A DNA stretch of 60,149 bases, counting the filler, from Sphacelaria rigidula (lineage: Eukaryota), in the NCBI GenBank assembly GCA_964200075.2. It is 4 parts of 4 records of this genome, joined end to end, with 100 filler letters (N's around TTAATTAATTAA, not from the genome) between each part and the next. Parts side by side here need not be neighbours in the genome. Positions count along the whole stretch, not along the records: positions 45,188 to 60,149 come from CAXNAA020001975.1; 3 more parts are not named here. One strand, 5' to 3'. The position numbers were made by a program, and so were the translations under genes. The notes under the pieces are model-generated. The model was given only the letters and a program-made list of their open reading frames with translations. It ran no database searches and was not told where the DNA came from. Numbering within the stretch: the stretch's first letter is position 1; the number at the start of each line of letters is the position of its first letter. Shown here one piece after another: positions 6,287-60,149 of this stretch.

Positions 6287-13430
<7,144 letters not shown>

Positions 13431-14963: not shown

Positions 14964-15063
14964 NNNNNNNNNNNNNNNNNNNNNNNNNNNNNNNNNNNNN
15001 NNNNNNNTTAATTAATTAANNNNNNNNNNNNNNNNNNNNNNNNNNNNNNNNNNNNNNNNNNNN
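14964..15063. other. Artificial linker between concatenated sequence pieces
   Basis: N44-TTAATTAATTAA-N44 (stops in all six frames). Identical linkers recur every 15,062 nt. Confidence 0.97.
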
Positions 15064-27041: not shown

Positions 27042-29956
27042 GTACTAACCCCCCTCCTGCTGTGCATGTGTGTGTATAGAGTACATGTGTTCGTGATGTA
27101 GAGATTCCCCCCCCCCCCTCACTCCCGCCCCTCTGGATCTTGGTTGTTATCGTGTGTTGGTTTGTCAACGGCGTTTCTCCAGGTATCACATGCTGCATGT
27201 AGCGCACGTAGGTGACGGGAGAGGTTGCACTCCCCGCCACAACATCTGTATATTTCGAAATAACACCCGAAGTCTACCGCAAGAAGTCGCTGTCTTGAAC
27301 AAAAAGTATTGCAAGCTAGGTTCTAAGTGTCATTCCATCGGCCGGTCATGCGCGTGCCGAGATTTTACGCGGAATATGTATCTTACTGCAGTGTCAACTT
27401 CCTCCGACACTAGAGCGCTACAGAGAATGGTGCGACGCCGAATACCTGTCAATTTCGTCCGGCGAAGATCCCTTTTGATACTGTCGTACGTGCATGATTT
27501 TTTTTTGCAGTATTGTACGAAGTCACTGTTGGAAAAATCGAGGCTTCAAAGTAATTACCAACGGCGGCGGGATATTGACGTGTGTGTATTGCTGGCGGCA
27601 CCGCAAAAACGAAGAAGCATATACCCGGAAACCCACCGGAAACGACGCGCACGACACCCTGTATTCTACTGTCATGAGGCACGGAGGCTTCGGAATCGGT
27701 TGACAAACTGCACGTACTGGACCTACGCTAACGATTTGCCAAGAGAGGAAATGTGTGAGCGGAAATTCCGACGCTGAGGCAAGGTGTTCTTACGGCGACG
27801 TGAATTTTATTGTGCCCTGGTCCAAAAATCCGATCGGTCAACATGGCGATTTTGCAGTTTTTTTGTACCGCTACAACCCACAACTGTCCGCACATGCCGA
27901 CGAGCGGAGTCAGCCCTTCTGCATAACGTACCGACGCACTTACTGGGGCGGCATGCCACATCTCGGGGCATGGGTTGAGCCGTGTTGACCGCGACCGTCG
28001 TGGTGCTCCCACTCGTGAGAGGTGTCGAGCCTTCACCTCGTTTGTTCCTCGACCCGATATTTGTAGAGAAGGGCGATGTGAAAAAACTTGGAGGTCCGCC
28101 ACTACCCGCAGCGGCATAACGGCCGCGATCCACTACAGGACAAGGAGTAGGTGTGGTTTTAGTGAAATAGACAAGGATCTATTTTAAACCACACAGTCTC
28201 AGTGGGGAGGGGGTTGATAGGGTCATCCACGGTAAAAGTTTATGCGAGCAGTTGAGATCCATTTTTGGCTTCCCCTTATGTGAAAGGAAGACTTGACGAG
28301 TCTTGTTATACAGGATGTTTGTAAACGGTTTTCACATCCGGGAATACAGGACAGCGGGGCACTATAGCGAGATAAAATAGCAGTCAAGATCAACGGAATA
28401 TATTACTCTGAGCTAGTGTAATATAAAGACTGTGACCGCAATGTCTGCCGTGTAGGGTTCAGTAGAGATCCAGAACATGATGGAGCAGCAGGCAATGTTG
28501 CTTTCGAGGGATAGTGCAATTTTTTTCTCTATATAGCACGCACATCGCTAATTATTCACCTGTGAAATGGTGAAAGAGTGGAGAAGTGAAGGAGCACCAG
28601 CAAGGAGTAGTGTCGGTACGACTCCCGGGTCACGGATGAGTGGTCGTAAGGCCGTAGTGAAGGTTCTAGTATGAATAGCAAGCAAGCTTCGAAATCGAAC
28701 AATGGTTCGTGGCCCGACGCCACCCGCAGCAATGCGCTTCGTGTAACGGTACAAACTGTTTAAAACGGACCTGCTACCCAAACGATACGTAACTGAGACC
28801 TATTGTCTTGATCCGCATATCTCACTGTAAATTTATTACCGGTGAAAACGACACAACATTGCCTCTGTTGTATTATTTGTAGTACGGAGGCATTCCACCG
28901 TTTGGCTGCCAGGTTGAGTCATATGTAGAATCGGCATCGTGTCTACTTGAACAATATCTACAATAGGACCCATACCCCCGCTGGCGGTCAAACTGTTGAA
29001 TGTCATTCGCAAGCCAAGTTGGGGTGGGTATCCAGCGATAACACCAGAGCAGAACGGTCTACCCTTTGCCTCAAGACCCGGCATGCAGCTCCGGTGAATA
29101 TACCGATCGTCACGTGATCAAGAAGAGCTGACACCAATCCACGACATGTGCCGGGAGTTGTGGCCCGTGTAGTGTATGGCACAGCGATATTTCGTGAAAG
29201 AAAATAGAAAAATCGGCGTGTGAGCCGATTGGTAATTTTGATTGGGAAGAAAGACTGACATTGCTCCAAGAAGTGGCCGTGGGCGGGTGTCTCGTCGAAA
29301 GAAGGAGAAAAAATAATGGAAACAAGAAGAACGAGCAAGGCAGCTTGCCTGCCCACAACAAAACATTTTTTCTTGAAAGAACGGTGATCCCTCAGGACCT
29401 GGGCGCCGTCGGAAACGGGTCTGGAAATTCAACGGGCGTGACTGAACCACGTGACTGAAACACGGTCACACCCACGAAAACGAGCCCGAGCAAACAAGCA
29501 CAGACGCCCACAGCACAAGCGGATCACGCCTAGCGCTGTAATTGCTCTTGCTTATCCATACACAGTGCTGTTTGTTTCCAGTGATCCGTTCGGTATTGGA
29601 ACAAGGTGTGGCCGTATGTATGTAGCAAGAGTTGCTCACGGTGGAGTCCTTGACAGTTTTGTGGGTGTCCTGTACAGCGCTCGTCTGACATGAATGATGG
29701 TCTCGATCCCTTTTGAACCGATTCGCACGGAGCCAGTGACATCGTTCTTCAGTGGATCAACAGCTACGACTTGCGCTATTCACTGCTGTCTATCCAGGAA
29801 CAGTGCTGTGATGCATGTCTGTCACATGGTTCAGACCTCAGACAAATGCTCACATCTACAAGGTGCATGTTTTCACCTTGTTGCACAGAAGCTATGATCA
29901 GCCGTCGCCCCAGGTAGTTGCGTGTTCATGTGTGACTGGTATTGCCGTTGATGCCA

Positions 29957-30025: not shown

Positions 30026-30125
30026 NNNNNNNNNNNNNNNNNNNNNNNNNNNNNNNNNNNNNNNNNNNNTTAATTAATTAANNNNNNNNNNNNNNNNNNN
30101 NNNNNNNNNNNNNNNNNNNNNNNNN
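30026..30125. other. Artificial linker
   Basis: N44-TTAATTAATTAA-N44. Confidence 0.97.
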
Positions 30126-30190
30126 ATCTACAGGATGCCCTTGTCCCCTGATCATCATCCAGGATCCAATATATACTCAACCGTTACGGC

Positions 30191-33060
30191 GTGATTTCGC
30201 CGCAGACTACGGGCTTGAGCATGAGTGGGCTGACACCTTCTGCCCCGAAAACGGTGCTAGATGGCTTGCCCCCCAGATCTTTCCTTTCGGTGTTTGGAAA
30301 TGCCAACACCAATTCAAGTCCCATATCCGGATACGACCTTTTCAGAGTGACGGGCCGCCGCATCAGTATTGCCGCCGACCCGGAACTCACCGTCTCCCCA
30401 TCTGTTTTCCCTGTACAAGTACGCGATATCATTTCTAGTAGAATGCGGGGTCGCAGAGCAGCGGAGGCCGCCGCGCACGCCGCTGTTTCTGGACCTGATC
30501 TTCCCCCGCCTTCTCCCGTTCCTGTACCGGCGAGTTTCCTCGCCCCACCCCAACCGCGTCGATACAAGTCAGCGCCCAGGGCGGGCTCACCCCCTGCTGG
30601 CCTGCCGACGATCGACGATTCTGCGGAGGACGATGCTCCGATCATTGACCTCTCCTGTACCAGTGACTGTGCTGTCCCACAGCATTCCACTCCTAACGAA
30701 TCTCTTGGCGAGGCTGAAGCTACTGGTACGGATCTATTGTCGGAGCTCGCCCCCCCTTGTACCCTACCTTCCGAGGGTGAAAGTCCAACAGACACCGTGA
30801 ACGATGCCTACGACTATCTCCTTGGCCCCGATGTCGAGAGTGGACAAAAAATTAAGCTTGTTTTCCCGCCAAGATTGGGCGCGAGAACAATTAGACGAGC
30901 CCGTGTGCTGCGCAGCTATACTTTTACCTGTCCCAAAGTTGTCCCATTCCATTCTCCTCCGCGGATATCCTCAAACCCGTTGGACGGCGCCGGGCACCCA
31001 CGCAGGATGAAGTTGTTGAGCTGGCCCGCAAAGGCAAACTGCATATGGATGATGATGGTGTTGTACTTCTTGTCTGCAAACCCACGCGGACACCTCAGTC
31101 AGACCGCCCTACCGGTAGGTATGCTCGCTTACTCGGTCAAGAACCTGTTCGCATTTACGTGCCCATGCTCATGCAACCATGGGTCCTACACGAGTGTCAT
31201 TCCAATGTTGTCAACCCATCTGGGTACAACTCGGACGGCCCAGCTCATCGAGAGATTCTACTGGTGGGTAGGTATCGACCAATGTGTCCGTTGGTGGGTA
31301 CAGCGTTGCTTGATCTGTCAGGCACGCAAGACGTCTCGCGAGACCGTGCGTTGGCCAGTCATGTCCACGCCGCTCCCCAATGGGCCCGGTGAAGTCATAT
31401 CTTGGGACTATTTCGGATCGTTGCCCCTTACGGAGAGTGGTAACAAGTACATTTTGTTGATTACTGATCGCTTCAGTCGCCACGCCGTCATGCACGCCGT
31501 CCCCGAAACCAACTATTCCGCAGACGGCACCGCTAATTTTCTGGTGTACAACTACATGCCACAATGGGGTGTCCCCCGGAAATTGTTGTCCGACAACGGC
31601 CAACACGTTTCTGGCAACCTTTCTGCTGCGGTTAGTACACTGCTGGGTTCCCATCGCATCTTTACAAGTACGTATCACCCCTAAACAAACGGTGGAACGG
31701 AACGTGTCAACCATACGATGGCGCAAATGCTGTCAGCCGCCACAAACGGACGGCAAACAAATTGGGATCTGCACCTGACCTTCGTCCAAATGAACTATAA
31801 TCATTCCGTCCACACCGCCACTGGCCTTGCACCAAATGAAATTCAAATTGGTCGCATGTCGAGGCTGCCGTTGACCATATTCGAGCGCCGCAACGTGGGC
31901 GGTCATGAGAGTTTTGACCGGGATACCAGGGAGTATCATGACCTTTTGAGTCATCGTCTGCGGTTGGCATATGAACTGGTGCGCGAGCAAAACCAAATCA
32001 ATTTGGCAAAAGCGGTTAGTGCCAATGCCACGTTGGATGCGGTGATGCATAAGCGCCCAGTGTGGAAGGTAAGTGCATGGGCGTGGGTGTACAACGATGT
32101 ACAGACGATTCGTCAAGGAGCCAGCGCGAGTAAGGATTCGCCGGATAAGGTATTGAAGGTCAAGCTGCCCCTCAATTGGACCGGGCCGTGGAAAATATTG
32201 AGTGTTGGGCCAAGCGCTACAGCACCGGATGATCGTCCGATCGGGGAAAACCTCTTGTACCTCTATTTCCCCACGGATGAAGCTGGGCCTCCGCAGAAAA
32301 ACCGCGTATCTGTGTGGCGCTGTAAACCTTGCACCGCCCGGCACGAAACCACGGATATGCCCGAACAGTTGCCGTTAGGACTCAGCCAGTACGTATTGAC
32401 GAGGCATGCCACCAAGTCGCCGCCTTTTTATGTCACGGGTGAAGACGTTCAAGCCCCCGTGGAACGCGTGGCAGTCGATCAAATCAGCGGACACCAACTG
32501 ATCCGCGGTTGTGGTGGTAAAATAGCCGTGGTGTATCAGACGAACTGGAAAGGATTTATGCGGGTCACGTGGGAACGAGAAGTCGACTTGCGACATTTCC
32601 GTGGACGAATTTTGCTGTACTGGGTAGGCGATGTTGCGCAACATCGTCCGTTGAATCGAAGATACAGGTCTACACGGAAAGGCGCGGCAGCACGGGAGCT
32701 GGCCCGGGAGCATTCGACCCGGTTCGTCATGGCTGGCTATAGCCTTATTTCGCGTGCGCAATACTTGCTTTGTTTTCGCAGGAAACGTCTACCGAAGCGT
32801 GCGTACTTCTGGTACGAGGCGCAGGAATCCCTCTGGTGCTGAGCAAGATTCACTTACCAGTACCCGACTCCGACAACTCCTACTACATCCGCTTCCTCGA
32901 TGACCCCGGCCCCCTGAAGCTCGTTTTGGACGATGCTTACTACACTGAAGCGTCGTCCGCTCGCCGCGGGTCCTGGTGTCTCCAGCATCATGACGACGGC
33001 AACAAAGACGACGCTATTCTCCGGAATATCGAAAAATCATGGAGAGAACACGAGTCTTGA
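30191..33060 (+). pseudogene. Gypsy pol remnant: integrase (HHCC + DDE core) and chromodomain-like C-terminus
   Basis: HECHS / HLGTTRT...FYWW...VQRCLICQARK (frameshift near 31210); ISWDYFG, ITDRFSR, LLSDNG; YHP*TNGGTERVNHTMAQML with an in-frame TAA at 31682-31684 where Gln is expected; KLPLNWTGPWKI (GPY/F motif); VDQISGHQ...YQTNWKG...TWEREVDL at 32474-32590; a further frameshift near 32840. Confidence 0.9.
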
Positions 33061-33146
33061 TGCGTTCTGTCGTATATTCCCCGTTGTATCGCCTAGCTAT
33101 TTCGACGCTATGGCCGCAAACCCCTCCTTTTTTATTTTTCTTATTG

Positions 33147-33300
33147 ATGTGTGTATGTGAATGTGCGTGTATATGTGTAAGAGTGTGTGTGCGCATATCT
33201 ATGTGCGTGTATGCCTGTATGTATATTTGGAGGTATGTATGCGTATACGTGTGTATGCGTGTGCGCGTATGGGGATATATGTGTATGTGTATGTGTGTGT
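33147..33300. repeat. Degenerate (GT/AT) microsatellite
   Basis: Alternating gtgtatgtgcgtgtat-type purine-pyrimidine tract. Confidence 0.85.
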
Positions 33301-33376
33301 ACCTGGCCATGGTCGCGTTTCCATGTCATTTTGGAGCCGTCGCATGTTGTAGGTCAGGTTGAACTGGTTCTGGAAC

Positions 33377-44973: not shown

Positions 44974-45063
44974 TGTGACGGTTTAAGAGACTACCAACTA
45001 GACTACTGACAAGTCAGCGCTGACTGGTCAGTAGTCTAGTTGGTAGTCTCTTCAGCCGTCACA
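44974..45063. repeat. 90-bp near-perfect palindrome (45-bp arms, no loop)
   Basis: TGTGACGGTTTAAGAGACTACCAACTAGACTACTGACAAGTCAGC|GCTGACTGGTCAGTAGTCTAGTTGGTAGTCTCTTCAGCCGTCACA; 3 mismatches; centre at 45018/45019. Confidence 0.95.
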
Positions 45064-45087: not shown

Positions 45088-45187
45088 NNNNNNNNNNNNN
45101 NNNNNNNNNNNNNNNNNNNNNNNNNNNNNNNTTAATTAATTAANNNNNNNNNNNNNNNNNNNNNNNNNNNNNNNNNNNNNNNNNNNN
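45088..45187. other. Artificial linker
   Basis: N44-TTAATTAATTAA-N44. It supplies the false stop of the 4992-aa ORF. Confidence 0.97.
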
Positions 45188-48100
45188 CACGTCGCCGCCC
45201 GATCCGGACGTGGCCGCCCCGCTGCCGATCTGGACCATGCCGGTGTTGCCGGAGCTGCTGGTGCCCGAGCTGAACACCAGCACGCCACTCACGCCGTCCG
45301 TCCCGGCGTTCGGCGAGCGGATCGTCACGGATCCACTGGTGGTCTCTGTGCCCTCGCCGCTGAGGATCGTCACCGACCCGCCGGTGCTGGCCGTGGCCGC
45401 GGTGGACGCTCCGGCCGTCACATGCACTGCACCGCCCTGGCCCGTGTCGCCGGTGCCAACGGTTAAGCCTACCAGACCTCCGGAGCCGCCGAGGGCGGCC
45501 CCGCTTCCGATCATGATGTCTCCGCTGTCTCCTACGGTGGTGGAGCCGGAGCTGAAGGTCATGGTTCCGCTGTTGCCGGCGGTACCGGCCGGGGGCGACG
45601 TGATGGTGACGGTGCCGCTATTCCCGCTCGTCACTGCTCCGCTGATCACTGATACCGCGCCACCTCCTATGCTACCACTACCAGCCATCATCGTCAAGTC
45701 GCCGCCCGTCACCGCCGAGCTCATCCCAGCTGACACGCTCACGTCGCCTCCCTCATCCGCCACACCGATCCCGGCCGATATGCTCACGGCCCCACCCACC
45801 GTCGCTCCCTGTCCCGCTGTCACCGTCACCGACCCGCCGGAGGCCGACGTGCCCTCGCCGGCCAACACGTCCAACGCACCGCCCGTCGACCCCACGCCCG
45901 CTGCCATCGCCACCTCGCCCCCAGTGCCCGTGCTTCCCGTCCCGGCCGCCAGCGATACGACGCCTCCCGTCACGCCTGTGCCGCCCGTCAACGTCAACGC
46001 GCCGCCCATCGCCAGGTCACCTGTGCCCACCGTCAAGCTCACGTCGCCGCCCGACCCGGACGTGGCCGCGCCGCTACCGATCTGGACCATGCCGGTACTG
46101 CCGGAGCTGCTGGTGCCCGAGCTGAACACCAGCACGCCGCTCACGCCGTCCGTCCCGGCGTTCGGCGAGCGTATCGTCACGGACCCGCTGGTGGTCTCTG
46201 TCCCCTCGCCGCTGAGGATCGTCACCGATCCTCCCGTGCCGGCCGTGGCCGCGGTGGACGCTCCGGCGGTGATTTGGACAAGGCCGCCCTGGTCCGTGTC
46301 GCCGGAGCCGACGGTCAGGCTCAGCAAGCCGCCGGAGCCACCAAGGGCTGCTCCACTTCCGATCATGATGTCTCCACTATCTCCGACGGTGGTGGAGCCG
46401 GAGCTGAAGGTCACGGTGCCGCTGTTCCCTGTTGTGCCTGCGGCGAGGGACGTGATGGTGATGGTCCCGCTGTTTCCATTTGTTACAGTCCCACTGGACA
46501 ACGAAAGGTGACCGCCACTTGTTTCTCCACTTCCACCGATGATCGATACGTCACCGCCAGCCGTTGCACCTTCCCCTGCTGCAATACTAACTGACCCACC
46601 TGAAGCCGATGTGCCCTCGCCCGCCACCACGTCGAACGCACCGCCCGTAGACCCGACGCCCGCAGCCATCGCCACCTCGCCCCCAGTACCTGTACTCCCT
46701 ATCCCGGCCGCCAGCGACACGGCGCCACCAGTCACGCCCGTCCCGCCCGTCAACGTCAACGCGCCGCCTGTCGCCAGGTCGCCCGTGCCCACCGTCACGC
46801 TCACGTCGCCGCCCGAACCCGACGTGGCCGCTCCGCTGCCGATCTGGACCATGCCGGTGTTGCCGGAGCTGCTGGTGCCCGAGCTGAACACCAGCACGCC
46901 GCTAACCCCGTCCGTACCGGCGTTCGGCGAGCGGATCGTCACGGATCCGCTGGTGGTCTCGGTGCCCTCGCCGCTCAGGATCGTCACCGACCCACCCGTG
47001 CCGGCCGTGACCGCGGTGGATGCTCCGGCCGTCAGCTGCACGAGACCGCCCTGATTGGTGTCACCAGTTCCGACGGTCAAGCTCAGCAGTCCGCCGGAGC
47101 CGCCGAGGGCGGCCCCGCTTCCGACCATGATGTCTCCGCTGTCTCCGACGGTGGTGGAGCCAGAGCTGAAGGTCATCACACCACTGTTCCCCGCGGTACC
47201 GGCGGCGGGGGACGTGATTGTGACAGTTCCGCTGTTTCCGCTCGTCACGGCCCCGCTCGCCACCAAGACGGCGCCCCCACCCACGCTGCCGCTGCCGGCG
47301 ACAATCGTCAAGTCGCCGCCCGTGACCGCCGAGCTCACTCCAGCCGACACGCTCACGTCGCCTCCCTCATCCGCCACACCAGCTCCGGCCGCTATGCTCA
47401 CGGCCCCACCCACCGTCGCTCCCAGTCCCGCTGTCACCGTCACCGACCCACCGGACGCCGTCGTGCCCTCGCCGGCCACCACGTCCAACGCACCGCCCGT
47501 CGACCCGACGCCCGCAGCCATCGCCACCTCGCCGCCGGTGCCCGTGCTTCCCGTCCCGGCCGCCAGCGACACGCCGCCCCCCGTCACGCCTGTCCCGCCT
47601 GTCAACGTCAACTCGCCGCCCGTTGCCAGGTCGCCCGTGCCCACCGTCACGCTCACGTCGCCGCCTGAACCTGACGTGGCCGCCCCGCTGCCGATCTGGA
47701 CCATGCCAGTGTCGCCGGAGCTGCTGGTGCCCGAGCTGAACACCAGCACGCCGCTGACGCCGTCCGTCCCGGCGTTCGGCGAGCGTATCGTCACGGATCC
47801 GCTGGTGGTCTCGGTGCCCTCGCCGCTCAGGATCGTCACCGACCCGCCCGTACCGGCCGTGACCGCGGTAGATGCTCCGGCGATGATTTGGACAAGACCG
47901 CCCTGGCCCGTATCACCGGTGCCGACCGTTAGGCTTAGCAGACCTCCGGAGCCGCCGAGGGCGGCCCCGCTTCCGATCATGATGTCTCCGCTGTCTCCGA
48001 CGGTGGTAGAGCCGGAGCTGAAGGTCATGACGCCGCTGTTGCCGGACGTACCCGCGGCGAGGGACGTAATGGTGACGGTCCCGCTGTTCCCGCTTGTCAC

Positions 48101-51100
48101 GGCTCCGCTCATCACTGAAACGGCACCACCACCCGCGCTGCCGCTGCCGGCCACCATCGTCAGGTCGCCACCTGTAAGGGTCGAGCTCATCCCGGCCGAT
48201 ACACTTACATCGCCTCCTTCATCCGCCACGCCATTACCTGCTGCTATACTCACGGCCCCACCAACGGTTGCGCCAAGTCCCGCCGTCACCGTTACCGACC
48301 CGCCGGACGCCGACGTGCCCTCGCCGGCCACCACGTCCAACGCCCCGCCCGTCGACCCGACGCCCGCCGCCATCGCCACCTCGCCCCCAGTGCCCGTGCT
48401 TCCTGTCCCGGCCGCTAAGGACACGGTGCCTCCCGTCACGCCCGTCCCGCCCGTCAACGTCAACGCGCCGCCGGTTGACAGGTCGCCTGTGCCTACCGTC
48501 AAGCTCACGTCGCCGCCCGATCCGGACGTGGCCGCGCCGCTGCCGATCTGGACCATGCCGGTACTGCCGGAGCTGCTGGTGCCCGAGCTGAACATCATGA
48601 CGCCGCTGACGCCGTTTGTGCCGGCGTTCGGCGAGCGGATCGTCACGGACCCGCTGGTGGTCTCGGTGCCCTCGCCGCTCAGGATTGTCACCGACCCTCC
48701 CGTGCCGGCCGTGGCCGCGGTGGACGCTCCGGCGGTGATTCGGACAAGACCGCCCTGGTCCGTGTCGCCGGAGCCGACCGTCAAGCTCACCAGACCTCCG
48801 GAGCCGCCCAGGGCAGTCCCGCTCCCAATCATGATGTCTCCGCTGTCTCCGACGGTGGTGGAACCGGAGCTGAAGGTCATGACGCCGCTGTTCCCGGAGG
48901 TACCGGCCGGGGGCGATGTGATGGTGACGGTCCCACTGTTGCCGTTCGTCACGGCTCCGCTCGTGACGACCACTGAACCGCCACGCACGCTGCCGCTCCC
49001 GGATACTAACGCCAGGTCGCCTCCAGTGACGGTCGAACTCGCCCCGGCCGATACGCTCACATCTCCGCCTTCACCGGTGCCTCCGCTACCGGCTGCGATA
49101 CTCACGCTGCCACCCGTTTCAGCACCGGAGCCAGCTTCCATGCTAAGCGATCCCCCGTTGTTCGTTGTTCCTGCTCCGGCTGCGATACTCAAAGCCCCGC
49201 CAGAGGTAGATCCTACTCCGGCATGAAGCGTAACAGCCCCACCAGTGCCAGATGTGCCGTCCCCAGCAGCAACACTCACTGCCCCACCTGTGGCCGCATT
49301 CCCAGCGATCACAGTGACTTCTCCGCCGGTGCCTGCTCCGCCTGTGCCCGCGGCGACATGTACAGGACCACCCGTGACCCCAGTACCTGCGCGAAGATAT
49401 AGCATGCCGCCCGTCGCCAGGTCGCCTGTGCCCACCGTCACGCTCACGTCGCCGCCCGATCCGGACGTAGCCGCCCCGCTGCCGATCTGGACCATGCCGG
49501 TGTTGCCGGAGCTGCTGGTGCCCGAGCTGAACACCAGCACGCCGCTAACCCCGTCCGTACCGGCGTTCGGCGAGCGTATCGTCACGGATCCGCTGGTGGT
49601 CTCTGTTCCCTCGCCGCTCAGGATCGTCACCGACCCACCCGTGCCGGCCGTGACCGCGGTGGACCCTCCGGCCGTCAACTGAACCTGACCGCCCTGGCCC
49701 GTGTCACCAGTGCCGACGGTCAAGCTCAGTAGACCTCCGGAGCCGCCCAGAGCAGTCCCGCTTCCGACCATGATGTCTCCGCTGTCTCCGACGGTGGTGG
49801 AGCCGGAGCTGAAGGTCATCACACCGCTGTTCCCCGCGGTACCGGCGGCGGGTGACGTGATTGTGACAGTTCCGCTGTTTCCGCTCGTCACGGCCCCGCT
49901 CGTCACCGATACGGTCCCGCCACCCACGCTGCCGCTGCCGGCGACAATCGTCAAGTCTCCACCTGTGACCGCCGAGCTCACTCCAGCCGACACGCTCACG
50001 TCGCCTCCCTCATCCGCCGCACCGGCCCCGGCCGCTATACTCACGGCCCCACCCACCGTCGCTCCCAGTCCTGCAGTAACCGTCACCGACCCACCGGAGG
50101 CCGTCGTGCCCTCGCCGGCCACCACGTCCAACGCACCGCCCGTCGACCCGACGCCCGCAGCCATCGCCACCTCGCCGCCGGTGCCCGTGCTTCCCGTCCC
50201 GGCCGCCAGCGACACGCCGCCTCCCGTCACGCCTGTCCCGCCTGTCAACGTCAACTCGCCGCCCGTTGCCAGGTCGCCCGTGCCCACCGTCACGCTCACG
50301 TCGCCGCCTGAACCTGACGTGGCCGCCCCGCTGCCGATCTGGACCATGCCAGTGTCGCCGGAGCTGCTGGTGCCCGAGCTGAACACCAGCACGCCGCTGA
50401 CGCCGTCCGTACCGGCGTTCGGCGAGCGTATCGTCACGGACCCGCTGGTGGTCTCGGTGCCCTCGCCGCTCAGGATCGTCACCGACCCGCCCGTGCCGGC
50501 CGTGGCCGCGGTAGATGCTCCGGCGATGATTTGGACAAGACCGCCCTGGCCCGTATCACCGGTGCCGACCGTTAGGCTTAGCAGACCTCCGGAGCCGCCG
50601 AGGGCGGCCCCGCTTCCGATCATGATGTCTCCGCTGTCTCCGACGGTGGTAGAGCCGGAGCTGAAGGTAATCGATCCGCTGTTGCCGGACGTACCCGCTG
50701 AGGGCGACGTGATGGTGACGGTGCCACTGTTACCGCTCGTCGCCGGTCCGCTGGTTACCGATACGGCGCCGCCGCCCGCGCTGCCGCTGCCGGCCACCAT
50801 CGTCAAGTCGCCGCCTGTGACCGCCAAGCTCACACCCGCAGACACGCTCACATCGCCTCCCTCATCCGCCGCACCGGCCCCGGCCGCTATGCTCACGGCC
50901 CCACCCACCGTCGCTCCCAGTCCCGCCGTCACCGTTACCGACCCACCGGACGCCGATGTGCCCTCGCCGGCCAACACGTCGAACGCTCCGCCCGTAGACC
51001 CGACCCCTGCAGCCATCGCCACCTCGCCTCCTATTCCCATGCTTCCTGTCCCGGCCGCTAAGGACACGGTGCCCCCCGTTACGCCCGTCCCGCCCGTTAA

Positions 51101-54100
51101 CGTCAACGCGCCACCTGTCGCTAGGTCGCCCGTGCCCACTGTCACGCTCACGTCGCCGCCGGACCCCGATGTGGCCGCGCCGCTCCCGATCTGGACCATG
51201 CCAGTGTTACCGGAGCTGCTTGTGCCCGAGCTGAACACTAGCACGCCGCTCACGCCGTCCGTACCGGCGTTCGGCGAGCGGATCGTCACGGACCCACTGG
51301 TGGTCTCGGTGCCTTCACCGCTCAGGATTGTCACCGAGCCTCCCGTGCCGGTCGTGGCCGCGGTAGATGTTCCGGCCGTCAGCTGCACCAGTCCGCCCTG
51401 GCCCGTATCACCAGTGCCGACTGTGAGGCTGAGCAGACCTCCGGAGCCGCCCAGGGCGGCTCCACTCCCGATCATGATGTCTCCACTATCTCCGACGGTG
51501 GTGGAGCCGGAGCTGAAGGTCATGGTGCCGCTGTTTCCGACCGTACCGGCGGCCGGGGACGTGATGGTAACAGTCCCGCTGTTGCCGCTTGTCACGGCGC
51601 CACTCGCCATCAACACGCGACCGCCACCTGTCCCGCCGCTGCCAGCGGCAATTGATAGGTCCCCGCCAGCCGTCGCTCCCAGTCCCGCCGTCATCGTCAC
51701 TGACCCGCCAGAAGTCACCGTGCCATCGCCCGCCCACACATCGAACGCCCCGCCTGTCGATCCCACGCCCGCAGCCATCGCCACCTCGCCGCCGGTGCCC
51801 GTGCTTCCCGTCCCGGCCGCCAGCGACACGGCGCCCCCCGTCACGCCTGTACCGCCCGTCAACGTCAACGCGCCGCCTGTCGCCAGGTCGCCCGTGCCCA
51901 CCGTCACGCTCACGTCGCCGCCCGACCCGGACGTGGCTGCCCCGCTGCCGATCTGGACCATGCCAGTGTTGCCGGAGCTGCTGGTGCCCGAGCTGAACAC
52001 CAGCACGCCGCTCACGCCGTCGGTGCCGGCGTTCGGCGAGCGTATCGTCACGGATCCGCTGGTGGTCTCTGTGCCCTCGCCGCTGAGGATCGTCACCGAC
52101 CCGCCAGTGCCGGCCGTGGCCGCGGTGGATGCGCCGGCCGTCACTTGCACCAGACCGCCCTGACCCGTGTCGCCGGTGCCGACCGCCAAGCTCAACAGGC
52201 CTCCTGACCCGCCGAGGGCGGCCCCGCTTCCGATCATGATATCTCCGCTGTCTCCGACGGTGGTGGAGCCGGAGCTGAAGGTCATCACACCGCTGTTCCC
52301 AGCGGTACCCGCCGCGGGGGACGTGATTGTGACAGTTCCGCTGTTGCCGCTTGTCACGGCGCCACTAGTCAATGATAACGCACCACCTCCTGTGCTGCCG
52401 CTGCCGGCCACCATCGTCAAGTCCCCTCCTGTCACCGCCGAGCTCACTCCAGCCGACACGCTCACGTCGCCTCCCTCATCCGCCGCACCGGCCCCGGCCG
52501 CTATGCTCACGGCCCCACCCACCGTCGCGCCAAGTCCCGCCGTCACCGTCACCGACCCGCCGGACGCCGATGTGCCCTCGCCCGCCACCACGTCCAACGC
52601 ACCGCCTGTCGATCCCACGCCCGCAACCAACGTCGCCTCGCCGCCGGTGCCCGTGCTTCCCGTCCCGGCCGCCAGCGACACGACGCCTCCCGTCACGCCC
52701 GTACCGCCCGTCAACGTCAACGCGCCGCCCGTCGCCAGGTCGCCCGTGCCCACCGTCACGCTCACGTCGCCGCCCGACCCGGACGTAGCCGCCCCGCTGC
52801 CGATCTGGACCATGCCGGTGTTGCCGGAGCTGCTGGTGCCCGAGCTGAACACCAGCACGCCGCTCACGCCGTCCGTGCCGGCGTTCGGCGAGCGGATCGT
52901 CACGGACCCGCTGGTGGTCTCTGTTCCCTCGCCGCTGAGGATCGTCACCGATCCGCCCGTGCCGGCCGTGGCTGCGGTGGACGCTCCGGCCGTCACTTGC
53001 ACCAGGCCGCCTTGGCTCGTGTCGCCGGTGCCGACCGTCAGGCTCAGCAGTCCGCCCGAGCCACCGAGGGCGGCCCCGCTTCCGATCATGATGTCTCCGC
53101 TGTCTCCTACAGTGGTGGAGCCGGAGCTGAAGGTCATGACGCCGCTGTTCCCCGCGGTCCCCGCGGCGGGGGACGAGATGGTGACCGTACCGCTGTTTCC
53201 GCTCGTCACCGCTCCACTGGCTACCGATACCGCTCCACCGCCCGCGCTACCGCTGCCAGCCACCATCGTCAAGTCGCCGCCCGTGACCGCCGAGCTCACA
53301 CCGGCCGATATACCCACGTCGCCTCCCTCGTCTGCCGCACCGGCCCCGGCCGCTATGCTCACGGCCCCACCCGCTGTCACGCCAAGTCCCGCCGTCACCG
53401 TCACCGAACCCCCAGAAGCCGTCGTGCCCTCGCCCGCCACCACGTCCAACGCCCCGCCTGTAGACCCGACGCCCGCAGCCATCGCCACCTCGCCGCCGGT
53501 GCCCGTGCTTCCCGTCCCGGCCGCCAGCGACACGGCGCCCCCCGTCACCCCCGTGCCGCCCGTCAACGTCAACGCGCCGCCCGTCGCCAGGTCGCCCGTG
53601 CCTACCGTCAAGCTCACGTCGCCGCCCGACCCGGACGTGGCCGCGCCGCTGCCGATCTGGACCATGCCAGTGTTGCCGGAGCTGCTGGTGCCCGAGCTGA
53701 ACACCAGCACGCCGCTCACGCCGTCCGTGCCGGCGTTCGGCGAGCGGATCGTCACGGATCCGCTGGTGGTCTCTGTGCCCTCGCCGCTGAGGATCGTCAC
53801 CGACCCGCCCGTGCCGGCCGTGGCCGCGGCGGACGCTCCGGCGGTGATTTGGACATTACCACCCTGACCCGTGTCGCCTGCGCCGACCGTCATGCTCAGC
53901 ATGCCTCCAGAGCCTCCTAGAGCAGTCCCGCTTCCGATCATGATGTCTCCGCTGTCTCCAATAGTCGTAGACCCAGAGCTGAAGGTCATGGTTCCGCTGT
54001 TCCCGGTCGTACCCGCGACAGGGGACGTGATCGTGACAGTACCGCTGTTGCCACTTGTCACGGCTCCGCTTGTCAGAGCCATCGCGCCACCGCCGGCGCT

Positions 54101-57100
54101 GCCGCTGCCAGCCACCATCGTCAAGTCTCCGCCCGTGACCGCCGAGCTCACACCGGCCGATACGCTCACGTCGCCTCCCTCGTCCGCCACGCCGGCCCCG
54201 GCCGCTATGCTCACGGCCCCACCCACCGTCGCTCCCAGTCCCGCCGTCACCGTCACCGACCCCCCAGAAGCCGTCGTGCCCTCGCCCGCCACCACGTCCA
54301 ACGCACCGCCTGTCGATCCCACGCCCGCAGCCATCGCCACCTCGCCGCCGGTGCCCGTGCTTCCCGTCCCGGCCGCCAGCGACACGCCCCCGCCCGTCAT
54401 GCCGGTGCCGCCCGTCAACGTCAACGCGCCGCCCGTCGCCAGGTCGCCCGTGCCCACCGTCACGCTCACGTCGCCGCCCGATCCGGACGTGGCTGCTCCG
54501 CTGCCGATCTGGACCATGCCAGTGTTGCCGGAGCTGCTGGTGCCCGAGCTGAACACCAGCACGCCGCTCACGCCGTCGGTGCCGGCGTTCGGCGAGCGTA
54601 TCGTCACGGACCCGCTGGTGGTCTCTGTTCCCTCGCCGCTGAGGATCGTCACCGACCCGCCCGTGCCGGCCGTGGCCGCGGAGGACGCTCCGGCCGTCAG
54701 CTGGACAAGCCCACCCTGACCCATGTCGCCGGTGCCGACTGTCAAGCTCAGCAGCCCACCCGAGCCACCAAGGGCAGCCCCGCTTCCGATCATGATGTCT
54801 CCGCTGTCTCCTATAGTGGTTGATCCGGAGCTGAAGGTCATGGTTCCGCTGTTCCCCGTGGTACCGGCTGGAGACGAGACGATGGTGACGATCCCGCTAT
54901 TTCCGCTCAAAACAGCTCCGCTTGTCAAGGCAATGCTGCCGCCGTCGGTGCCTCCATATCCAGCACTTATCGATACATCCCCGCCGAAGGAAGAACCCTC
55001 ACCAGCTGTAAAAGTCACCGACCCACCAGAAGCCGTCGTGCCCTCGCCCGCCACCACGTCCAACGCACCGCCTACCGACCCCACGCCCGCCGCCATCGTC
55101 ACCTCGCCGCCGGTGCCCGTGCTTCCCGTCCCGGCCGCCAGCGACACGACGCCTCCCGTCACGCCCGTACCGCCCGTCAACGTCAACGCACCGCCCGTCG
55201 CCAGGTCGCCTGTGCCCACCGTCAAGCTCACGTCGCCGCCCGACCCGGACGTGGCCCCTCCACTGCCGATCTGGACCATGCCAGTGTCGCCGGAGCTGCT
55301 GGTGCCCGAGCTGAACACCAGCACGCCGCTCACGCCGTCCGTGCCGGCGTTCGGCGAGCGGATCGTCACGGACCCGCTGGTGGTCTCTGTGCCCTCGCCG
55401 CTGAGGATCGTCACCGACCCGCCCGTGCCGGCCGTGGCCGCGGTGGACCCTCCGGCTGTGATTCGGACGAGACCTCCCTGGCTCGTGTCGCCGGTGCCGA
55501 CCGTCAGGCTCAGCAGTCCGCCCGAGCCGCCGATGGCGGCCCCGCTTCCGATCATGATGTCTCCGCTGTCTCCTACAGTGGTGGATCCGGAGCTGAAGGT
55601 CATGGCGCCGCTGTTCCCGGTGGTACCAGCTTGTGGCGAGGTGATGGTGACGGTTCCGCTGTTTCCGCTCATCACAGCACCACTGGTCAATGACATTTCA
55701 CCACCACCCGTGTCACCATACCCAGCAGCAAGCAAAAGCTTGCCACCTACACTAGCGCCCTCTCCGGCCGTCACCGTCACCGACCCACCAGACGCCGTCG
55801 TGCCCTCGCCGGCAACGACGTCAAACGCACCACCTGTCGACCCCACGCCCGCCGCCATCGCCACCTCGCCGCCGGTGCCCGTGCTTCCCGTCCCGGCCGC
55901 CAGCGACACGACGCCTCCCGTCACGCCCGTCCCGCCTGTCAACGTCAACGCGCCGCCCGTCGCCAGGTCGCCCGTGCCCACCGTCACGCTCACGTCGCCG
56001 CCCGACCCGGACGTGGCTGCTCCGCTGCCGATCTGGACCATGCCGGTGTTGCCGGAGCTGCTGGTGCCCGAGCTAAACACCAGCACGCCGCTCACGCCGT
56101 CGGTGCCGGCGTTCGGCGAGCGTATCGTCACGGACCCGCTGGTGGTCTCTGTTCCCTCGCCGCTGAGGATCGTCACCGACCCGCCCGTGCCGGCCGTGGC
56201 TGCGGTGGATGCACCAGCCGTCAGCTGGACAAGCCCACCCTGACCCGTGTTGCCGGTGCCGACGGTCAAGCTCATCAGACCGCCCGAGCCACCAAGGGCA
56301 GCTCCACTTCCGATCATGATGTCTCCGCTGTCTCCTATGGTGGTAGATCCAGAGCTCAATGTCATGATGCCGCTGTTTCCAGTAGATCCGGCTGGAGGAG
56401 AAGTGATAGTCACCGTACCGCTGTTGCCGCTAGTCACGGCCCCGCTCGTCACTGCTACGACCCCACCCCCTGAGCTGCCGCTGCCGGCCACCATCGTCAA
56501 GTCGCCGCCAGTGACCGCCGAGCTCACACCCGCCGACACGCTCACGTCGCCTCCCTCATCCGCCACGCCGTCACCCGCCGCTATGCTCACGGCCCCACCC
56601 ACCGTCGCTCCCAGTCCCGCGATCACCGTCACCGACCCCCCAGAAGCCGTCGTGCCTTCACCCGCCACCACGTCGAACGATCCGCCCGTAGACCCCACGC
56701 CCGCCGCCATCGCCACCTCGCCGCCGGTGCCCGTGCTTCCCGTCCCGGCCGCCAGCGACACGGCGCCCCCCGTCACCCCCGTGCCGCCCGTCAACGTCAA
56801 CGCGCCGCCCGTCGCCAGGTCGCCCGTGCCCACCGTCACGCTCACGTCGCCGCCCGATCCGGACGTGGCCGCGCCGCTGCCGATCTGGACCATGCCAGTG
56901 TTGCCGGAGCTGCTGGTGCCCGAGCTGAACACCAACACGCCGCTCACGCCGTCGGTGCCGGCGTTCGGCGAGCGTATCGTCACGGACCCGCTGGTGGTCT
57001 CGGTGCCCTCGCCGCTCAGGATCGTCATCGACCCGCCAGTGCCGGCCGTAGCCGCGGTGGACCCTCCGGCCGCTACTTGCACCAGACCGCCCTGGCCCGT

Positions 57101-60100
57101 GTCGCCTGCGCCGACCGTCATGCTCAGCACGCCTCCAGAGCCCCCTAGAGCAGTCCCGCTTCCGATCATGATGTCTCCGCTGTCTCCTATAGTTGTAGAC
57201 CCAGAGCTGAAGGTCATGATTCCGCTGTTCCCTGTCGTACCCGCCGCGGGGGAAGTGATCGTGACCGTACCGCTGTTGCCACTTGTCACGGCTCCGCTTG
57301 TCAGCACCACCGCGCCACCGCCCCCACTGCCGCTGCCCGCCACCATCGTCAAGTCTCCGCCCGTGACCGCCGAGCTCACCCCGGCCGATATACTCACGTC
57401 GCCTCCCTCATCCAACACACCGACCCCGGCCGCTAAACTCATGGCCCCACCCACCGTCGCTCCCAGTCCCGCCATCACCATCACCGACCCGCCGGACGCC
57501 GATGTGCCCTCGCCCGCCACCACGTCCAACGCCCCGCCTGTCGACCCCACGCCCGCCGCCATCGCCACCTCGCCGCCTGTGCCCGTGCTTCCCGTCCCGG
57601 CCGCCAGCGACACGCCCCCGCCCGTCACGCCGGTACCGCCCGTCAACGTCAACGCGCCGCCCGTCGCCAGGTCACCTGTGCCCACCGTCAAGCTCACGTC
57701 GCCGCCCGACCCGGACGTGGCCGCTCCGCTGCCGATCTGGACCATGCCAGTGTTGCCGGAGCTGCTGGTGCCCGAGCTGAACACCAACACGCCGCTCACG
57801 CCGTCGGTGCCGGCGTTCGGCGAGCGTATCGTCACGGACCCGCTGGTGGTCTCGGTGCCCTGGCCGCTCAGGATCGTCACCGACCCGCCCGTGCCGGCCG
57901 TGACCGCAGTGGACGCTCCGGCCGTCACCTGCACCAGACCGCCCTGGCCCGTGTCGCCGGTGCCGACGGTCAAGCTCAGCACGCCTCCCGAGCCACCAAG
58001 GGCGGCCCCGCTTCCGATCATGATGTCTCCGCTGTCCCCGACGGTAGTTGAGCCGGAGCTGAAGGTCATGGTTCCGCTGTTTCCGGACGTACCGGCGGCC
58101 GGGGACGTGATGGTAACAGTCCCGCTGTTGCCGCTGGTGACGGCTCCACTAGACAAGACCATGTGACCCCCTCCCGTTCCACCGCTTCCTGCGACAGCCG
58201 ATAAATCGCCCCCAGCCGTGACACCTTTTCCCCCCGACAAGATGACTGACCCACCAGAAGCCGTCGTGCCCTCGCCCGCCACCACGTCGAACGACCCGCC
58301 TGTCGACCCCACACCCGCCGCCATCGCCACCTCGCCGCCGGTGCCCGTGCTTCCCACCCCGGCCGCCAGCGACACGTCGCCCCCCGTCACGCCCGTCCCG
58401 CCCGTCAACGTTAACGCGCCGCCCGTTGCCAGGTCGCCCGTGCCCACCGTCAAGCTCACGTCGCCGCCCGATCCGGACGTGGCCGCTCCGCTGCCGATCT
58501 GGACCATGCCGGTGTTGCCGGAACTACTGGTGCCCGAGCTGAACATCAATACGCCGCTGACACCGTCAGTACCGGCGTTCGGTGACCGGATCGTCACGGG
58601 TCCGCTGGTGGTCTCTGTTCCCTCGCCGCTGAGAATCGTCACCGACCCGCCCGTGCCGGCCGTGGCCGCGGTGGACGCTCCGGCCGTCAACTGGACAAGA
58701 CCACCTTGGCCCGTGTCGCCTGAGCCGACCGTCAAGCCAAGAAAGCCGCCCGAGCCACCATGGGCGGCCCCGCTGCCGATCATGATGTCCCCGCTGTCTC
58801 CTATGGTAGTCGATCCGGAGCTGAAGGTCATGGTTCCGCTGTTCCCGGCGGTACCCGCGGCGGGGGACGTGATCGTGACCGTACCGCTGTTGCCGCTCGT
58901 TACCGCTCCGCCAGCGATTGATACGGCGCCACCGCCCGCGCTGCCGCTGCCCGCCACCATCGTCAAGTCTCCGCCCGTGACCGCCGAGCTCACACCGGCC
59001 GATATACTCACGTCGCCTCCCTCATCCAACACACCATCACCCGCCGCTATGCTCACGGCCCCACCCACCGTCGCTCCAAGTCCCGCCGTCACCGTCACCG
59101 ACCCCCCAGAAGCCGTCGTGCCCTCGCCCGCCACCACGTCCAACGCACCGCCCGTCGACCCCACGCCCGCCGCCATCGCCACCTCGCCGCCTGTGCCCGT
59201 GCTTCCCGTCCCGGCCGCCAGCGACACGCCCCCGCCCGTCACGCCCGTGCCGCCCGTCAACGTCAACGCGCCGCCCGTCGCCAGGTCGCCCGTGCCCACC
59301 GTCACGCTCACGTCGCCGCCCGATCCGGACGTGGCCGCGCCGCTGCCGATCTGGATCATGCCGGTGTTGCCGGAGCTGCTGGTGCCCGAGCTGAACACCA
59401 GCACGCCGCTCACGCCGTCCGTCCCGGCGTTCGGCGAGCGGATCGCTACGGACCCGCTGGTGGTCTCTGTGCCCTCGCCGCTCAAGATCGTCACCGACCC
59501 GCCCGTGCCGGCCGTGGCCGCGGTGGACGCTCCGGCCGTCACCTGCACCAGACCGCCCTGACCCGTGTCGCCGGTGCCGACGGTCAAGCTCAGCAGTCCT
59601 CCTGAGCCACCAAGGGCAGTCCCGCTTCCGATCATGATGTCTCCGCTGTCTCCCACCGTCGTAGACCCAGAGCTGAAGGTCATGGTTCCACTGTTCCCAG
59701 CTGTGCCGGCGGCGGGGGACGTGATGGTGACCGTGCCGCTGTTGCCGCTAGTCACGGCGCCGCTCGTCACCCAGACGGCGCCACCACCCCCGCTGCCGCT
59801 GCCGGCCACCATCATCAAGTCGCCGCCAGTGACCGCCGAGCTCACACCGGCCGATACACTCACGTCGCCTCCCTCATCCGCAACGCCGTCACCCGCCGCT
59901 ATGCTCACGGCCCCACCAACCGTCGCTCCCAGTCCCGCCGTCACCGTCACCGACCCCCCAGAAGCCGTCGTGCCCTCGCCCGCCACCACGTCGAACGATC
60001 CGCCCGTCGACCCCACGCCCGCCGCCATTGCCACCTCGCCGCCGGTACCAGTGCTTCCCGTCCCGGCCGCCAGCGACACGCCCCCGCCCGTCACGCCCGT

Positions 60101-60148
60101 GCCACCCGTCAACGTCAACGCGCCGCCCGTCGCCAGGTCGCCGGTGCC
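45188..60148 (-). CDS. Giant Gly/Ser/Thr/Ala/Val-rich repeat protein (predicted beta-solenoid/fibre), internal fragment of at least 4,987 aa
   Basis: Stop-free frame across the whole piece. The frame continues upstream of the track's TTG 'start' (GTGDLATGGAL...) and runs into the linker downstream. Differences between repeat copies are frame-preserving and largely at third codon positions or conservative, which indicates purifying selection. Confidence 0.93.
45228..59349. repeat. Coding tandem array of 852/762/939-bp super-repeats
   Basis: The marker ATCTGGA(C/T)CATGCC occurs at 45228, 46080, 46842, 47694, 48546, 49485, 50337, 51189, 51951, 52803, 53655, 54507, 55269, 56031, 56883, 57735, 58497, 59349: eleven 852-bp, five 762-bp and one 939-bp intervals. 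Confidence 0.95.
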
Positions 60149-60149
60149 C

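Follow-up and report, generated by a model that had tools for sequence, protein, structure and literature searches.

What kind of protein is encoded by a reading frame of several thousand codons that consists almost wholly of one short repeated motif, and is the gene the host's own? This question is raised by a 60,149-nucleotide (nt) stretch of DNA from the brown alga Sphacelaria rigidula (GenBank assembly GCA_964200075.2), which we call the window. The window is made up of four excerpts of ~14,962 nt joined by N44-TTAATTAATTAA-N44 spacers, and features cannot be linked across excerpts. The whole of the fourth excerpt (45188-60149) is taken up by the frame in question, here referred to as the repeat gene. 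We estimate a probability of about 60% that it codes for the central shaft of a very large, secreted fibre in which three identical chains form a triple beta-helix, of the type represented by phage fibres and by the pond-water glycofibril TLP-12. The frame itself can be described as follows:

45188-60148, minus strand: internal fragment of a giant open reading frame (ORF), 4,987 codons with 0 stops, both ends cut by the excerpt boundaries

An earlier note on this DNA had counted 4,987 uninterrupted codons without naming the strand; the count is borne out and the strand is the minus strand. The other five frames of the excerpt contain 381, 54, 46, 11 and 173 stops, and the repeat gene is free of introns across at least 15 kb. 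The frame had also been described as open at both ends. It does run off both ends, but only because the middle part of a larger gene was excerpted.

The encoded protein is a hierarchy of repeats. A simple strand-core scan detects 331 strand cores, or sub-repeats, whose 330 spacings are 15 amino acids (aa) in 202 cases, 16 in 36, 14 in 35, 13 in 33, 18 in 18 and some other length in 6, in line with the ~330 copies of a 13-18-aa unit counted earlier. The autocorrelation of both hydrophobic (0.35) and Gly (0.37) residues is at its maximum at lag 15. In the 202 units of exactly 15 aa, the consensus is x-[VLMI]-[ST]-[IVL]-x-[SAV]-G-x-[GA]-[TDS]-x-[GAD]-[TS]-[GS]-G; position 2 is V, L, M, I or F in 99% of them, position 4 is hydrophobic in 99%, and Gly occupies positions 7 and 15 in 91%. 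At the next level, 18 SPNAGT anchors bound 17 complete super-repeats, eleven of 284 aa, five of 254 aa and one of 313 aa. The earlier figure of 19 units per 284-aa super-repeat applies to 10 of the 11 units of this length, the other having 18. The parts of the array are:

59438-60148, minus strand: partial super-repeat of 237 aa at the N-terminal edge; the first SPNAGT anchor is at residue 238
45317-59437, minus strand: array of 17 complete super-repeats, with identities between units of 75-95% (DNA) and 77-97% (protein)
58586-59437, minus strand: reference 284-aa super-repeat (P0001) with 19 sub-repeats, used as query for searches and models
58586-58960, minus strand: residues 160-284 of the reference unit, the module best preserved among relatives and the one modelled best, with a predicted local distance difference test score (pLDDT) of 64-74 in the monomer model
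57824-58585, minus strand: 254-aa short super-repeat, with two sub-repeats fewer
55358-56119, 54596-55357, 51278-52039 and 46169-46930, minus strand: the remaining four 254-aa units
48635-49573, minus strand: 313-aa long super-repeat with 21 sub-repeats
45188-45316, minus strand: partial super-repeat of 43 aa at the C-terminal edge; the last SPNAGT anchor is at residue 4945 of 4987

The 313-aa unit is the most divergent (75-78% DNA identity to the other units). Throughout the 4,987 aa the composition is narrow: G accounts for 27.2% of residues, T for 15.0%, S for 14.8%, A for 11.4% and V for 10.5%, so that Gly, Ser, Thr and Ala together make up 68% and Ser and Thr 29.8%. The earlier description of a net acidic protein with no Cys and nearly no Lys, Tyr or Trp agrees with the residue counts (Cys 0, Lys 2, Tyr 3, Trp 2; D+E 269 versus K+R 25). 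As a separate observation, there are no N-x-S/T sequons among the 77 Asn residues, despite the 30% content of Ser and Thr. Their absence is not statistically meaningful because the Asn residues sit in about four repeated contexts with Gly at +2.

Could such an array be a non-coding satellite whose 852-bp unit is open in one frame by chance? The chance that a single 284-codon unit is open, calculated from base composition, is P ~0.0015 per frame, so on this count by itself an open satellite would be conceivable; ORFs of up to 824 codons are also present in other frames. The pattern of change between the units says otherwise. The 254-, 284- and 313-aa super-repeats all have DNA lengths divisible by three. 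Mean identity between units is 84.6% in DNA and 87.9% in protein, with adjacent super-repeats no more alike than distant ones, and the differences are concentrated at third codon positions: at positions 1, 2 and 3, respectively, 99, 61 and 237 alignment columns of 284 each are variable, and pairwise differences number 3,382, 1,820 and 11,645. By the Nei-Gojobori method, the 136 unit pairs have a mean nonsynonymous divergence (dN) of 0.076 and a mean synonymous divergence (dS) of 0.51, with a median dN/dS of 0.146 and a maximum of 0.25. The third-position excess, the low dN/dS and the unit lengths in multiples of three therefore identify a selected coding array rather than a chance frame: the repeat array is protein-coding, and each repeat is under purifying selection. 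Since protein-level relatives also exist in other genera, a satellite origin is next to impossible.

These relatives were found by searching 1.84 billion representative proteins with the reference unit P0001 (phmmer/HMMER), which gave 375 matches at E<=1e-3, 47 at <=1e-10 and 1 at <=1e-30. The best is a protein of Ectocarpus sp. CCAP 1310/34 (CAB1099194.1, P0002; E 7.7e-65, 45% identity over the matched stretches). Thirty relatives were looked up, and four of these carry an organism name: the Ectocarpus protein, the oomycete proteins DAZ94475.1 of Lagenidium giganteum and CAK4417441.1 of Aphanomyces euteiches, and a 'tail fiber domain-containing protein' on a 3.5-kb contig of an archaeal metagenome-assembled genome (MAG). 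Several others bear the source label 'merc', which we take to denote a catalogue of marine eukaryote transcripts. The nearest ESM Atlas clusters consist of eukaryotic hypothetical proteins whose commonest phylum is Oomycota or Bacillariophyta, a lineage signal that is weak because the recognition value is low. What the relatives share is a module of ~110 aa that occurs twice per 284-aa unit, ...SG-x-V-x-I-x-T-x-NAG-x-x-G-x-SG-x-h-x-h-S[ST]G-x-S-x-x-G-x-SG-x-I-x-IG[ST]G-x-A-x-x-G-x-GG..., or, in a shorter form, ...SG-x-V-x-I-x-[ST]-x-NAG-x-x-G-x-SG...GDSG-x-I-x-IG[ST]G.... By sequence similarity, the repeat gene is thus a member of an unnamed, mostly stramenopile protein family that includes P0002, DAZ94475.1 and CAK4417441.1.

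The earlier note had been unable to assign the protein to a characterised family. In that respect it was right: a PHROGs search with P0001, P0005, P0008 and P0157 returned no family, PDB sequences searched with P0001 and with a profile gave 0 matches at E<=1, and two 1,000-aa stretches compared with Pfam at E<=1 matched none of the ice-nucleation, RTX/HemolysinCabind, YadA-head/Hep_Hag, pentapeptide or hexapeptide families. The protein is nevertheless not an orphan, given the unnamed family above. The sole Pfam match of the two stretches, GAF_3, had no stretch that passed alone and was rejected as a composition artefact. A literature search found no paper on the repeat family in brown algae, oomycetes or other stramenopiles.

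Some relatives carry other domains in addition to the repeat. We scanned 150 listed relatives with Pfam (threshold E<=1e-3 in the first 79 and E<=1e-5 in the remaining 71) and found Peptidase_S74 (PF13884, 'chaperone of endosialidase') in 9 of them, or in 8 of the 39 that are at least 500 aa long. The carriers are P0007 (three copies), P0023 (from Aphanomyces), P0042, P0077, P0092, P0093, P0099, P0110 and P0127. P0077 (2,250 aa) shows how the parts may be arranged: a signal-like N-terminus is followed by EGF, other Gly-rich repeats, the repeat at ~700-1070 and Peptidase_S74 at 2065-2139, and its match to the whole 284-aa unit has 33% identity (E 4e-13, composition-adjusted BLASTP). P0157 has a hydrophobic anchor-like segment at its start and a ~110-aa non-repeat domain at its end, and P0159, a relative outside the 150, has a T7-tail-fibre N-terminal domain (Phage_T7_tail). 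Among the first 79 relatives, three contain teneurin-type EGF and one contains Kringle. P0122 is clearly a bacterial surface protein and is probably present by composition. A search for giant relatives (2,742-8,728 aa) returned one, P0203, of 3,935 aa and 28% identity, with no Pfam family.

Two side observations concern the layout and annotation of these relatives. In P0007 and P0202 (1,767 and 2,114 aa), the Gly-rich repeat alternates with three Peptidase_S74 domains per polypeptide, so that to judge from their domain order they look like polyproteins of several self-cleaving fibre modules; a search with the S74 region of P0007 found only P0007 itself and one 89%-identical protein. In the gene model of the Ectocarpus relative P0002, repeat runs are broken by Arg/His-rich segments that look out of frame, and its start and end are unclear, which suggests that gene callers mishandle the family.

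The fold of the repeat was approached by structure prediction, which the earlier note had proposed for the monomer and the trimer, to be followed by Foldseek. An alignment of 115 rows was assembled for the 284-aa models from the 17 units of the window and 98 short relatives; ~100 of the 115 rows cover residues 160-284 of the reference unit. With this alignment, the AlphaFold2 (AF2) monomer reaches a pLDDT of 59.3 overall and 70-74 over residues 200-284, and DSSP assigns it no strands. Three copies of the same unit give a very different result: the interface score ipSAE is 0.80/0.81/0.80, compared with 0.00 for the best of 3 controls, the partner pLDDT is 89, and the chains make ~2,500 contacts with one another, on which the runs agree to at least 88%. 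In calibration on solved structures, 20 of 30 homo-pairs passed the ipSAE mark, as did 1 of 23 single chains; the figures for eukaryotes are 17 of 29 homo-pairs and 0 of 30 single chains, and 1 of 7 where there was no older solved relative. The trimer model is confident and the monomer model poor. Foldseek with the monomer model found 0 matches in the PDB.

The geometry of the three-copy model is informative. Its lowest-error contacts join residue i of chain 2 to residue i+15 of chain 3 (266-281, 268-283, 174-189, 220-235) and residue i of chain 1 to residue i-17 of chain 3 (266-248, 251-234, 219-202), and contacts at shifts of 0 and +7 are also present. This corresponds to a predicted triple-stranded beta-helix in which neighbouring strands come from other chains with a shift of one sub-repeat. 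A monomer without strands is to be expected of a chain that forms its sheets with other chains. Of the folds put forward in the earlier note, beta-helix, beta-roll or trimeric fibre, it is the trimeric variant that holds up in silico, and the single-chain solenoid and beta-roll are disfavoured.

That single-chain alternative deserves a fair account. Here one chain would form a beta-solenoid, whether beta-helix or beta-roll, in which every rung is a single 15-aa unit and no oligomer is required. It would resemble insect antifreeze and ice-nucleation proteins, a flat ladder of Ser/Thr serving as its binding face. The strict period of 15 aa, in which hydrophobic residues alternate with Ser/Thr, suits it well, as do the 25 short strands, one every ~14-15 aa, of a single-sequence AF2 monomer (426 aa). 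These strands come with a pLDDT of 42, however, and vanish once the alignment is supplied, whereas three copies reach pLDDT 89 and ipSAE 0.80 against 0.00 in the controls. A trimerising chaperone in relatives also points away from a solitary chain, as does the empty Pfam comparison for ice-nucleation, RTX and adhesin repeats at E<=1. In a fold comparison, the weak matches lean towards the trimeric fibre. VIA-align against 48,161 chains places the phage tail-fibre protein HylP1 first (2c3f_A, Z 3.9, rmsd 4.2, 119 residues aligned), followed by 6wv2_A (Z 3.3) and 2wb3_A (Z 2.4), with designed repeat proteins among the matches and the beta-solenoids EtpA and CsgA at Z 2.5 and 2.2. A search of BFVD gave 0 matches at E<=0.001, and its best three are uncharacterised uncultured-phage proteins (E 1.9e-3 to 4.6e-3). 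Such matches agree with a trimeric fibre without proving it. On balance, we consider a single-chain solenoid unlikely.

A second alternative dispenses with the fold altogether and regards the protein as a disordered, mucin-like spacer or matrix protein rich in Gly, Ser and Thr. With 68% Gly, Ser, Thr and Ala, low-confidence monomer models and no match to a known fold, this is a natural thought. A spacer of this kind is hard to reconcile with hydrophobic residues fixed at positions 2 and 4 of the 15-mer, with a dN/dS of 0.15 at a dS of 0.5, which preserves the exact sequence and not just the composition, or with the confident three-copy model. We regard it as very unlikely.

The homotrimeric fibre can be spelled out as follows. 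Each ~15-aa sub-repeat would contribute one short strand, its hydrophobic residues alternating inward while Ser, Thr and Asp face the solvent, and the Gly-rich corner would take the chain on to the next face. On every face the adjacent strands would come from the two other chains, shifted by one sub-repeat. By analogy with the relatives, a C-terminal Peptidase_S74 chaperone may nucleate folding and then cut itself off, and the strongly acidic surface with its 30% Ser/Thr may bear O-glycans as in the TLP-12 glycofibril; secretion, glycosylation and the C-terminal chaperone of the repeat gene are all suggested by such analogy. The step between strands in a beta-sheet is ~0.48 nm. With one such rise per 15 aa and 331 sub-repeats, the fragment would therefore form a rod of ~160 nm, a minimum for the whole fibre. 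The same estimate had been made before from the sequence, and it survives in silico in that the inter-chain shift equals one 15-aa unit. With two faces per 15-mer, the arrangement of the TLP-12 12-mer, the fibre would be twice as long.

TLP-12, obtained by CryoSeek, is the closest described analogue, and the repeat gene would be its stramenopile counterpart. According to the preprint that describes it, TLP-12 is a pond-water glycofibril in whose cryo-EM structure dodecapeptide repeats form a triple beta-helix of C3 symmetry and two Ser in each repeat bear O-glycans, and it was matched to giant Amoebophrya proteins that end in ICA, one of them 19,853 aa long with 1,263 repeats; the ~150 candidates reported there are all alveolate (10.1101/2025.09.30.679562). 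As described in the same preprint and in a second source, the ICA/Peptidase_S74 domain trimerises, helps the triple beta-helix upstream of it to fold and cuts itself off, and it occurs in phage tailspikes and fibres and in MYRF (10.1101/2025.09.30.679562, PMC12220804). Both systems involve a giant protist protein made nearly entirely of short Gly/Ser-rich tandem repeats, with three interwoven chains in a triangular triple beta-helix (predicted in the case of the repeat gene), ICA/Peptidase_S74 within the family and a Ser/Thr-rich outer surface, which in TLP-12 is O-glycosylated. They differ in that the TLP-12 repeat has 12 aa (GSxxSx7, a motif that occurs once in the 4,987 aa here) rather than 15, with two strands per repeat rather than the one predicted for the repeat gene, and in that the repeat gene has a 284-aa super-repeat and comes from a stramenopile and not an alveolate lineage. 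The comparison with the TLP-12 candidates draws on their published description and on the motif count.

Phage tailspikes and tail fibres are similar in their homotrimeric intertwined beta-structure, predicted for the repeat gene, and in sharing PF13884, found in 9 of the 150 relatives; the best, though weak, fold matches are likewise hyaluronate-lyase fibres (HylP1 and HylP3; 2c3f, 2wb3). HylP1 is itself a triple-stranded beta-helix. Unlike these fibres, the repeat gene has a eukaryotic host and no sequence match among PHROGs, phage records or the PDB, and it is roughly an order of magnitude longer. A further giant stramenopile protein, Phytophthora Lpv (large peripheral vesicle), has a gene that lacks introns and is made up of long tandem repeats almost identical to one another. 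It is described as a glycoprotein of >400 kDa and, in contrast to a fibre, as a stored vesicle protein not known to form one (PMC3869178). The name Lpv appears on none of the 30 relatives looked up, a comparison by name only. The membrane-bound transcription factors MYRF and MrfA, for their part, exemplify the eukaryotic use of a phage-type ICA module for trimerisation and self-cleavage, but according to their descriptions they combine a very short beta-helical stalk with a DNA-binding domain (PMC8326128, PMC3742443), neither of which is seen in the repeat gene or the scanned relatives.

Several observations weigh against the fibre reading and account for our restraint. Both edges of the excerpt fall within the repeat array, and the ends of the gene lie beyond it. 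Peptidase_S74 was not seen in 141 of the 150 listed relatives. Regular strands do appear in one chain alone, in the single-sequence monomer, at the low pLDDT given above. The three-copy run departs from the ipSAE calibration by its custom alignment and its three copies; the trimer comes from one program, and the copy numbers modelled were 1 and 3. Models of this kind can place repetitive strand-forming sequences side by side. In the VIA-align comparison, 0 of the 48,161 chains reached Z>=5, and every match lies below the stated noise level. Public runs offer no evidence of weight for transcripts, with no RNA run listed as containing the stretch. Finally, the G+C content (GC) is 70% in the fourth excerpt against 49-53% in the other three, and GC at third codon positions (GC3) is 0.80 in the repeat gene against 0.65-0.72 in three short host exons with Pfam matches, a gap that leaves some weight on a foreign origin.

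The array might accordingly have come from an integrated or co-assembled virus (a giant virus or a polinton-like element), from another eukaryote or from a bacterium living on the alga, and such a viral or epibiont origin keeps some probability because the flanks are unseen. Beyond the GC gap, one of the two studies that contain the stretch (41-46% of sampled words) is labelled 'algae metagenome' (the other belongs to a single organism), relatives contain S74 and T7-tail-fibre domains, the relative in the archaeal MAG is named a tail-fibre protein, and the three best BFVD matches are proteins of uncultured phages (E 2e-3 to 5e-3). Polinton-like viruses (PLVs) are described as encoding modular fibres of up to 3.9k aa that end in S74, although the same source reports such fibres as lacking in the PLVs of ochrophytes (PMC12220804), and an exon of more than 15 kb would occupy a whole PLV. 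The GC excess, moreover, results mostly from the amino-acid composition (Gly, Ala, Thr and Ser; GC at codon positions 1, 2 and 3 is 0.60, 0.70 and 0.80), and GC3 is also high, at 0.65-0.72, in host exons. By far the best relative is the Ectocarpus protein, from a nuclear assembly and on a 268-kb contig. Close relatives of P0001 were found neither in 185,579 prokaryote species genomes (one each) nor in IMG/VR or the JGI metagenomes, all in pattern-limited scans, and tblastn against 50,697 phage records gave no match. Bacterial contamination, named earlier as a finding that would undo the proposal, is not supported, as there are relatives in Ectocarpus and oomycetes and no close match in the pattern-limited prokaryote scan. 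A foreign origin is therefore unlikely in our view; to judge from its relatives, the repeat gene is most likely the alga's own nuclear gene and of stramenopile descent.

Two runs that are RNA by guess show nothing either way about expression, because the run type is guessed and DNA may be present. In X9, for which DNA is also possible, contigs of 205 nt (49777-49981, 0 differences) and 80 nt (3 differences) matched the repeat gene, and no contig of X8 did so. In X1 and X2, short-read contigs reach every one of the 30 bins, though in fragments; contig joints between distant repeats in these two were disregarded, the sides of each joint being just 21-34 nt.

Where the fibre would act is a matter of guesswork: extracellular, adhesive and flagellar-hair roles are all guesses, and the secretory-type features (signal-like N-termini, EGF and Kringle) occur in relatives only. 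Mastigoneme identity was considered and dropped. The known Phytophthora mastigoneme proteins are described as EGF-domain proteins (10.64898/2026.09.11.750887), and apart from three relatives with teneurin-type EGF nothing ties the repeat gene to them. A more sweeping proposal would be that stramenopiles, brown algae included, have adopted the viral tail-fibre principle, a triple beta-helix that is chaperoned by ICA and cleaves itself, to build giant extracellular fibres of their own cells; the repeat gene would then encode one of the longest triple beta-helices known, at least 160 nm in this fragment, as the protein core of a fibril at the surface of brown-alga cells or outside them, such as a matrix glycofibril, an adhesive thread of spores or zoids, or flagellar-hair filaments. 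We offer this broader idea as doubtful.

The interest of the fibre reading lies in the history of the fold. For a long time, triple-beta-helix fibres that fold with the help of a self-cleaving chaperone were regarded as peculiar to phages, and MYRF as an oddity among eukaryotes. In 2025, a cryo-EM preprint reported the fold in a pond-water glycofibril and pointed to giant alveolate proteins (10.1101/2025.09.30.679562). The repeat gene suggests that a second family, unrelated to look at in sequence, does the same in stramenopiles, multicellular brown algae included. The repeats of this second family have a period of 15 aa and a super-period of 284 aa, and Pfam has no model for them. If the reading is true, it would provide a protein identity for fibrous extracellular material of brown algae and oomycetes, and a defined repeat from which a family model can be built. 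Strong purifying selection would then hold at least 17 old copies near-identical in protein while their DNA drifts, and the product would be a very long, regular, acidic, Ser/Thr-faced rod, a possible biomaterial scaffold. There is also a warning for annotation, as gene callers break or miss genes of this kind and the Ectocarpus relative is visibly fragmented.

The other three excerpts provide the genomic background:

14964-15063, 30026-30125 and 45088-45187: N44-TTAATTAATTAA-N44 spacers between the excerpts
9807-10517 and 12464-12892, minus strand: split protein-kinase exons (Pfam), excerpt 1
26772-27098, plus strand: DUF842 exon (Pfam), excerpt 2
30152-31684, continuing to 32842, plus strand: retroelement pol fragment with Integrase_H2C2 (E 7.7e-12), rve and zf-H2C2

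The split kinase exons and the DUF842 exon fit the MAPK and FAM136A-like genes that had been noticed earlier in these excerpts and, together with the retroelement integrase, indicate that the other excerpts are the eukaryotic nuclear genome of an intron-rich host. The pol fragment is followed by a 385-aa open frame without a Pfam match. At 44974-45063 there is a 90-nt palindrome with two 45-nt arms that are 93% complementary with 0 nt between them, followed by ...GGTTCGATTCC at the cut end of excerpt 3, which resembles a tRNA T-arm; ARAGORN found no tRNA in excerpt 3. At 33014-33362 lies a (CA/TG)-rich microsatellite-like tract, which gives runs of Cys/Val/Tyr or of His/Thr on its two strands.

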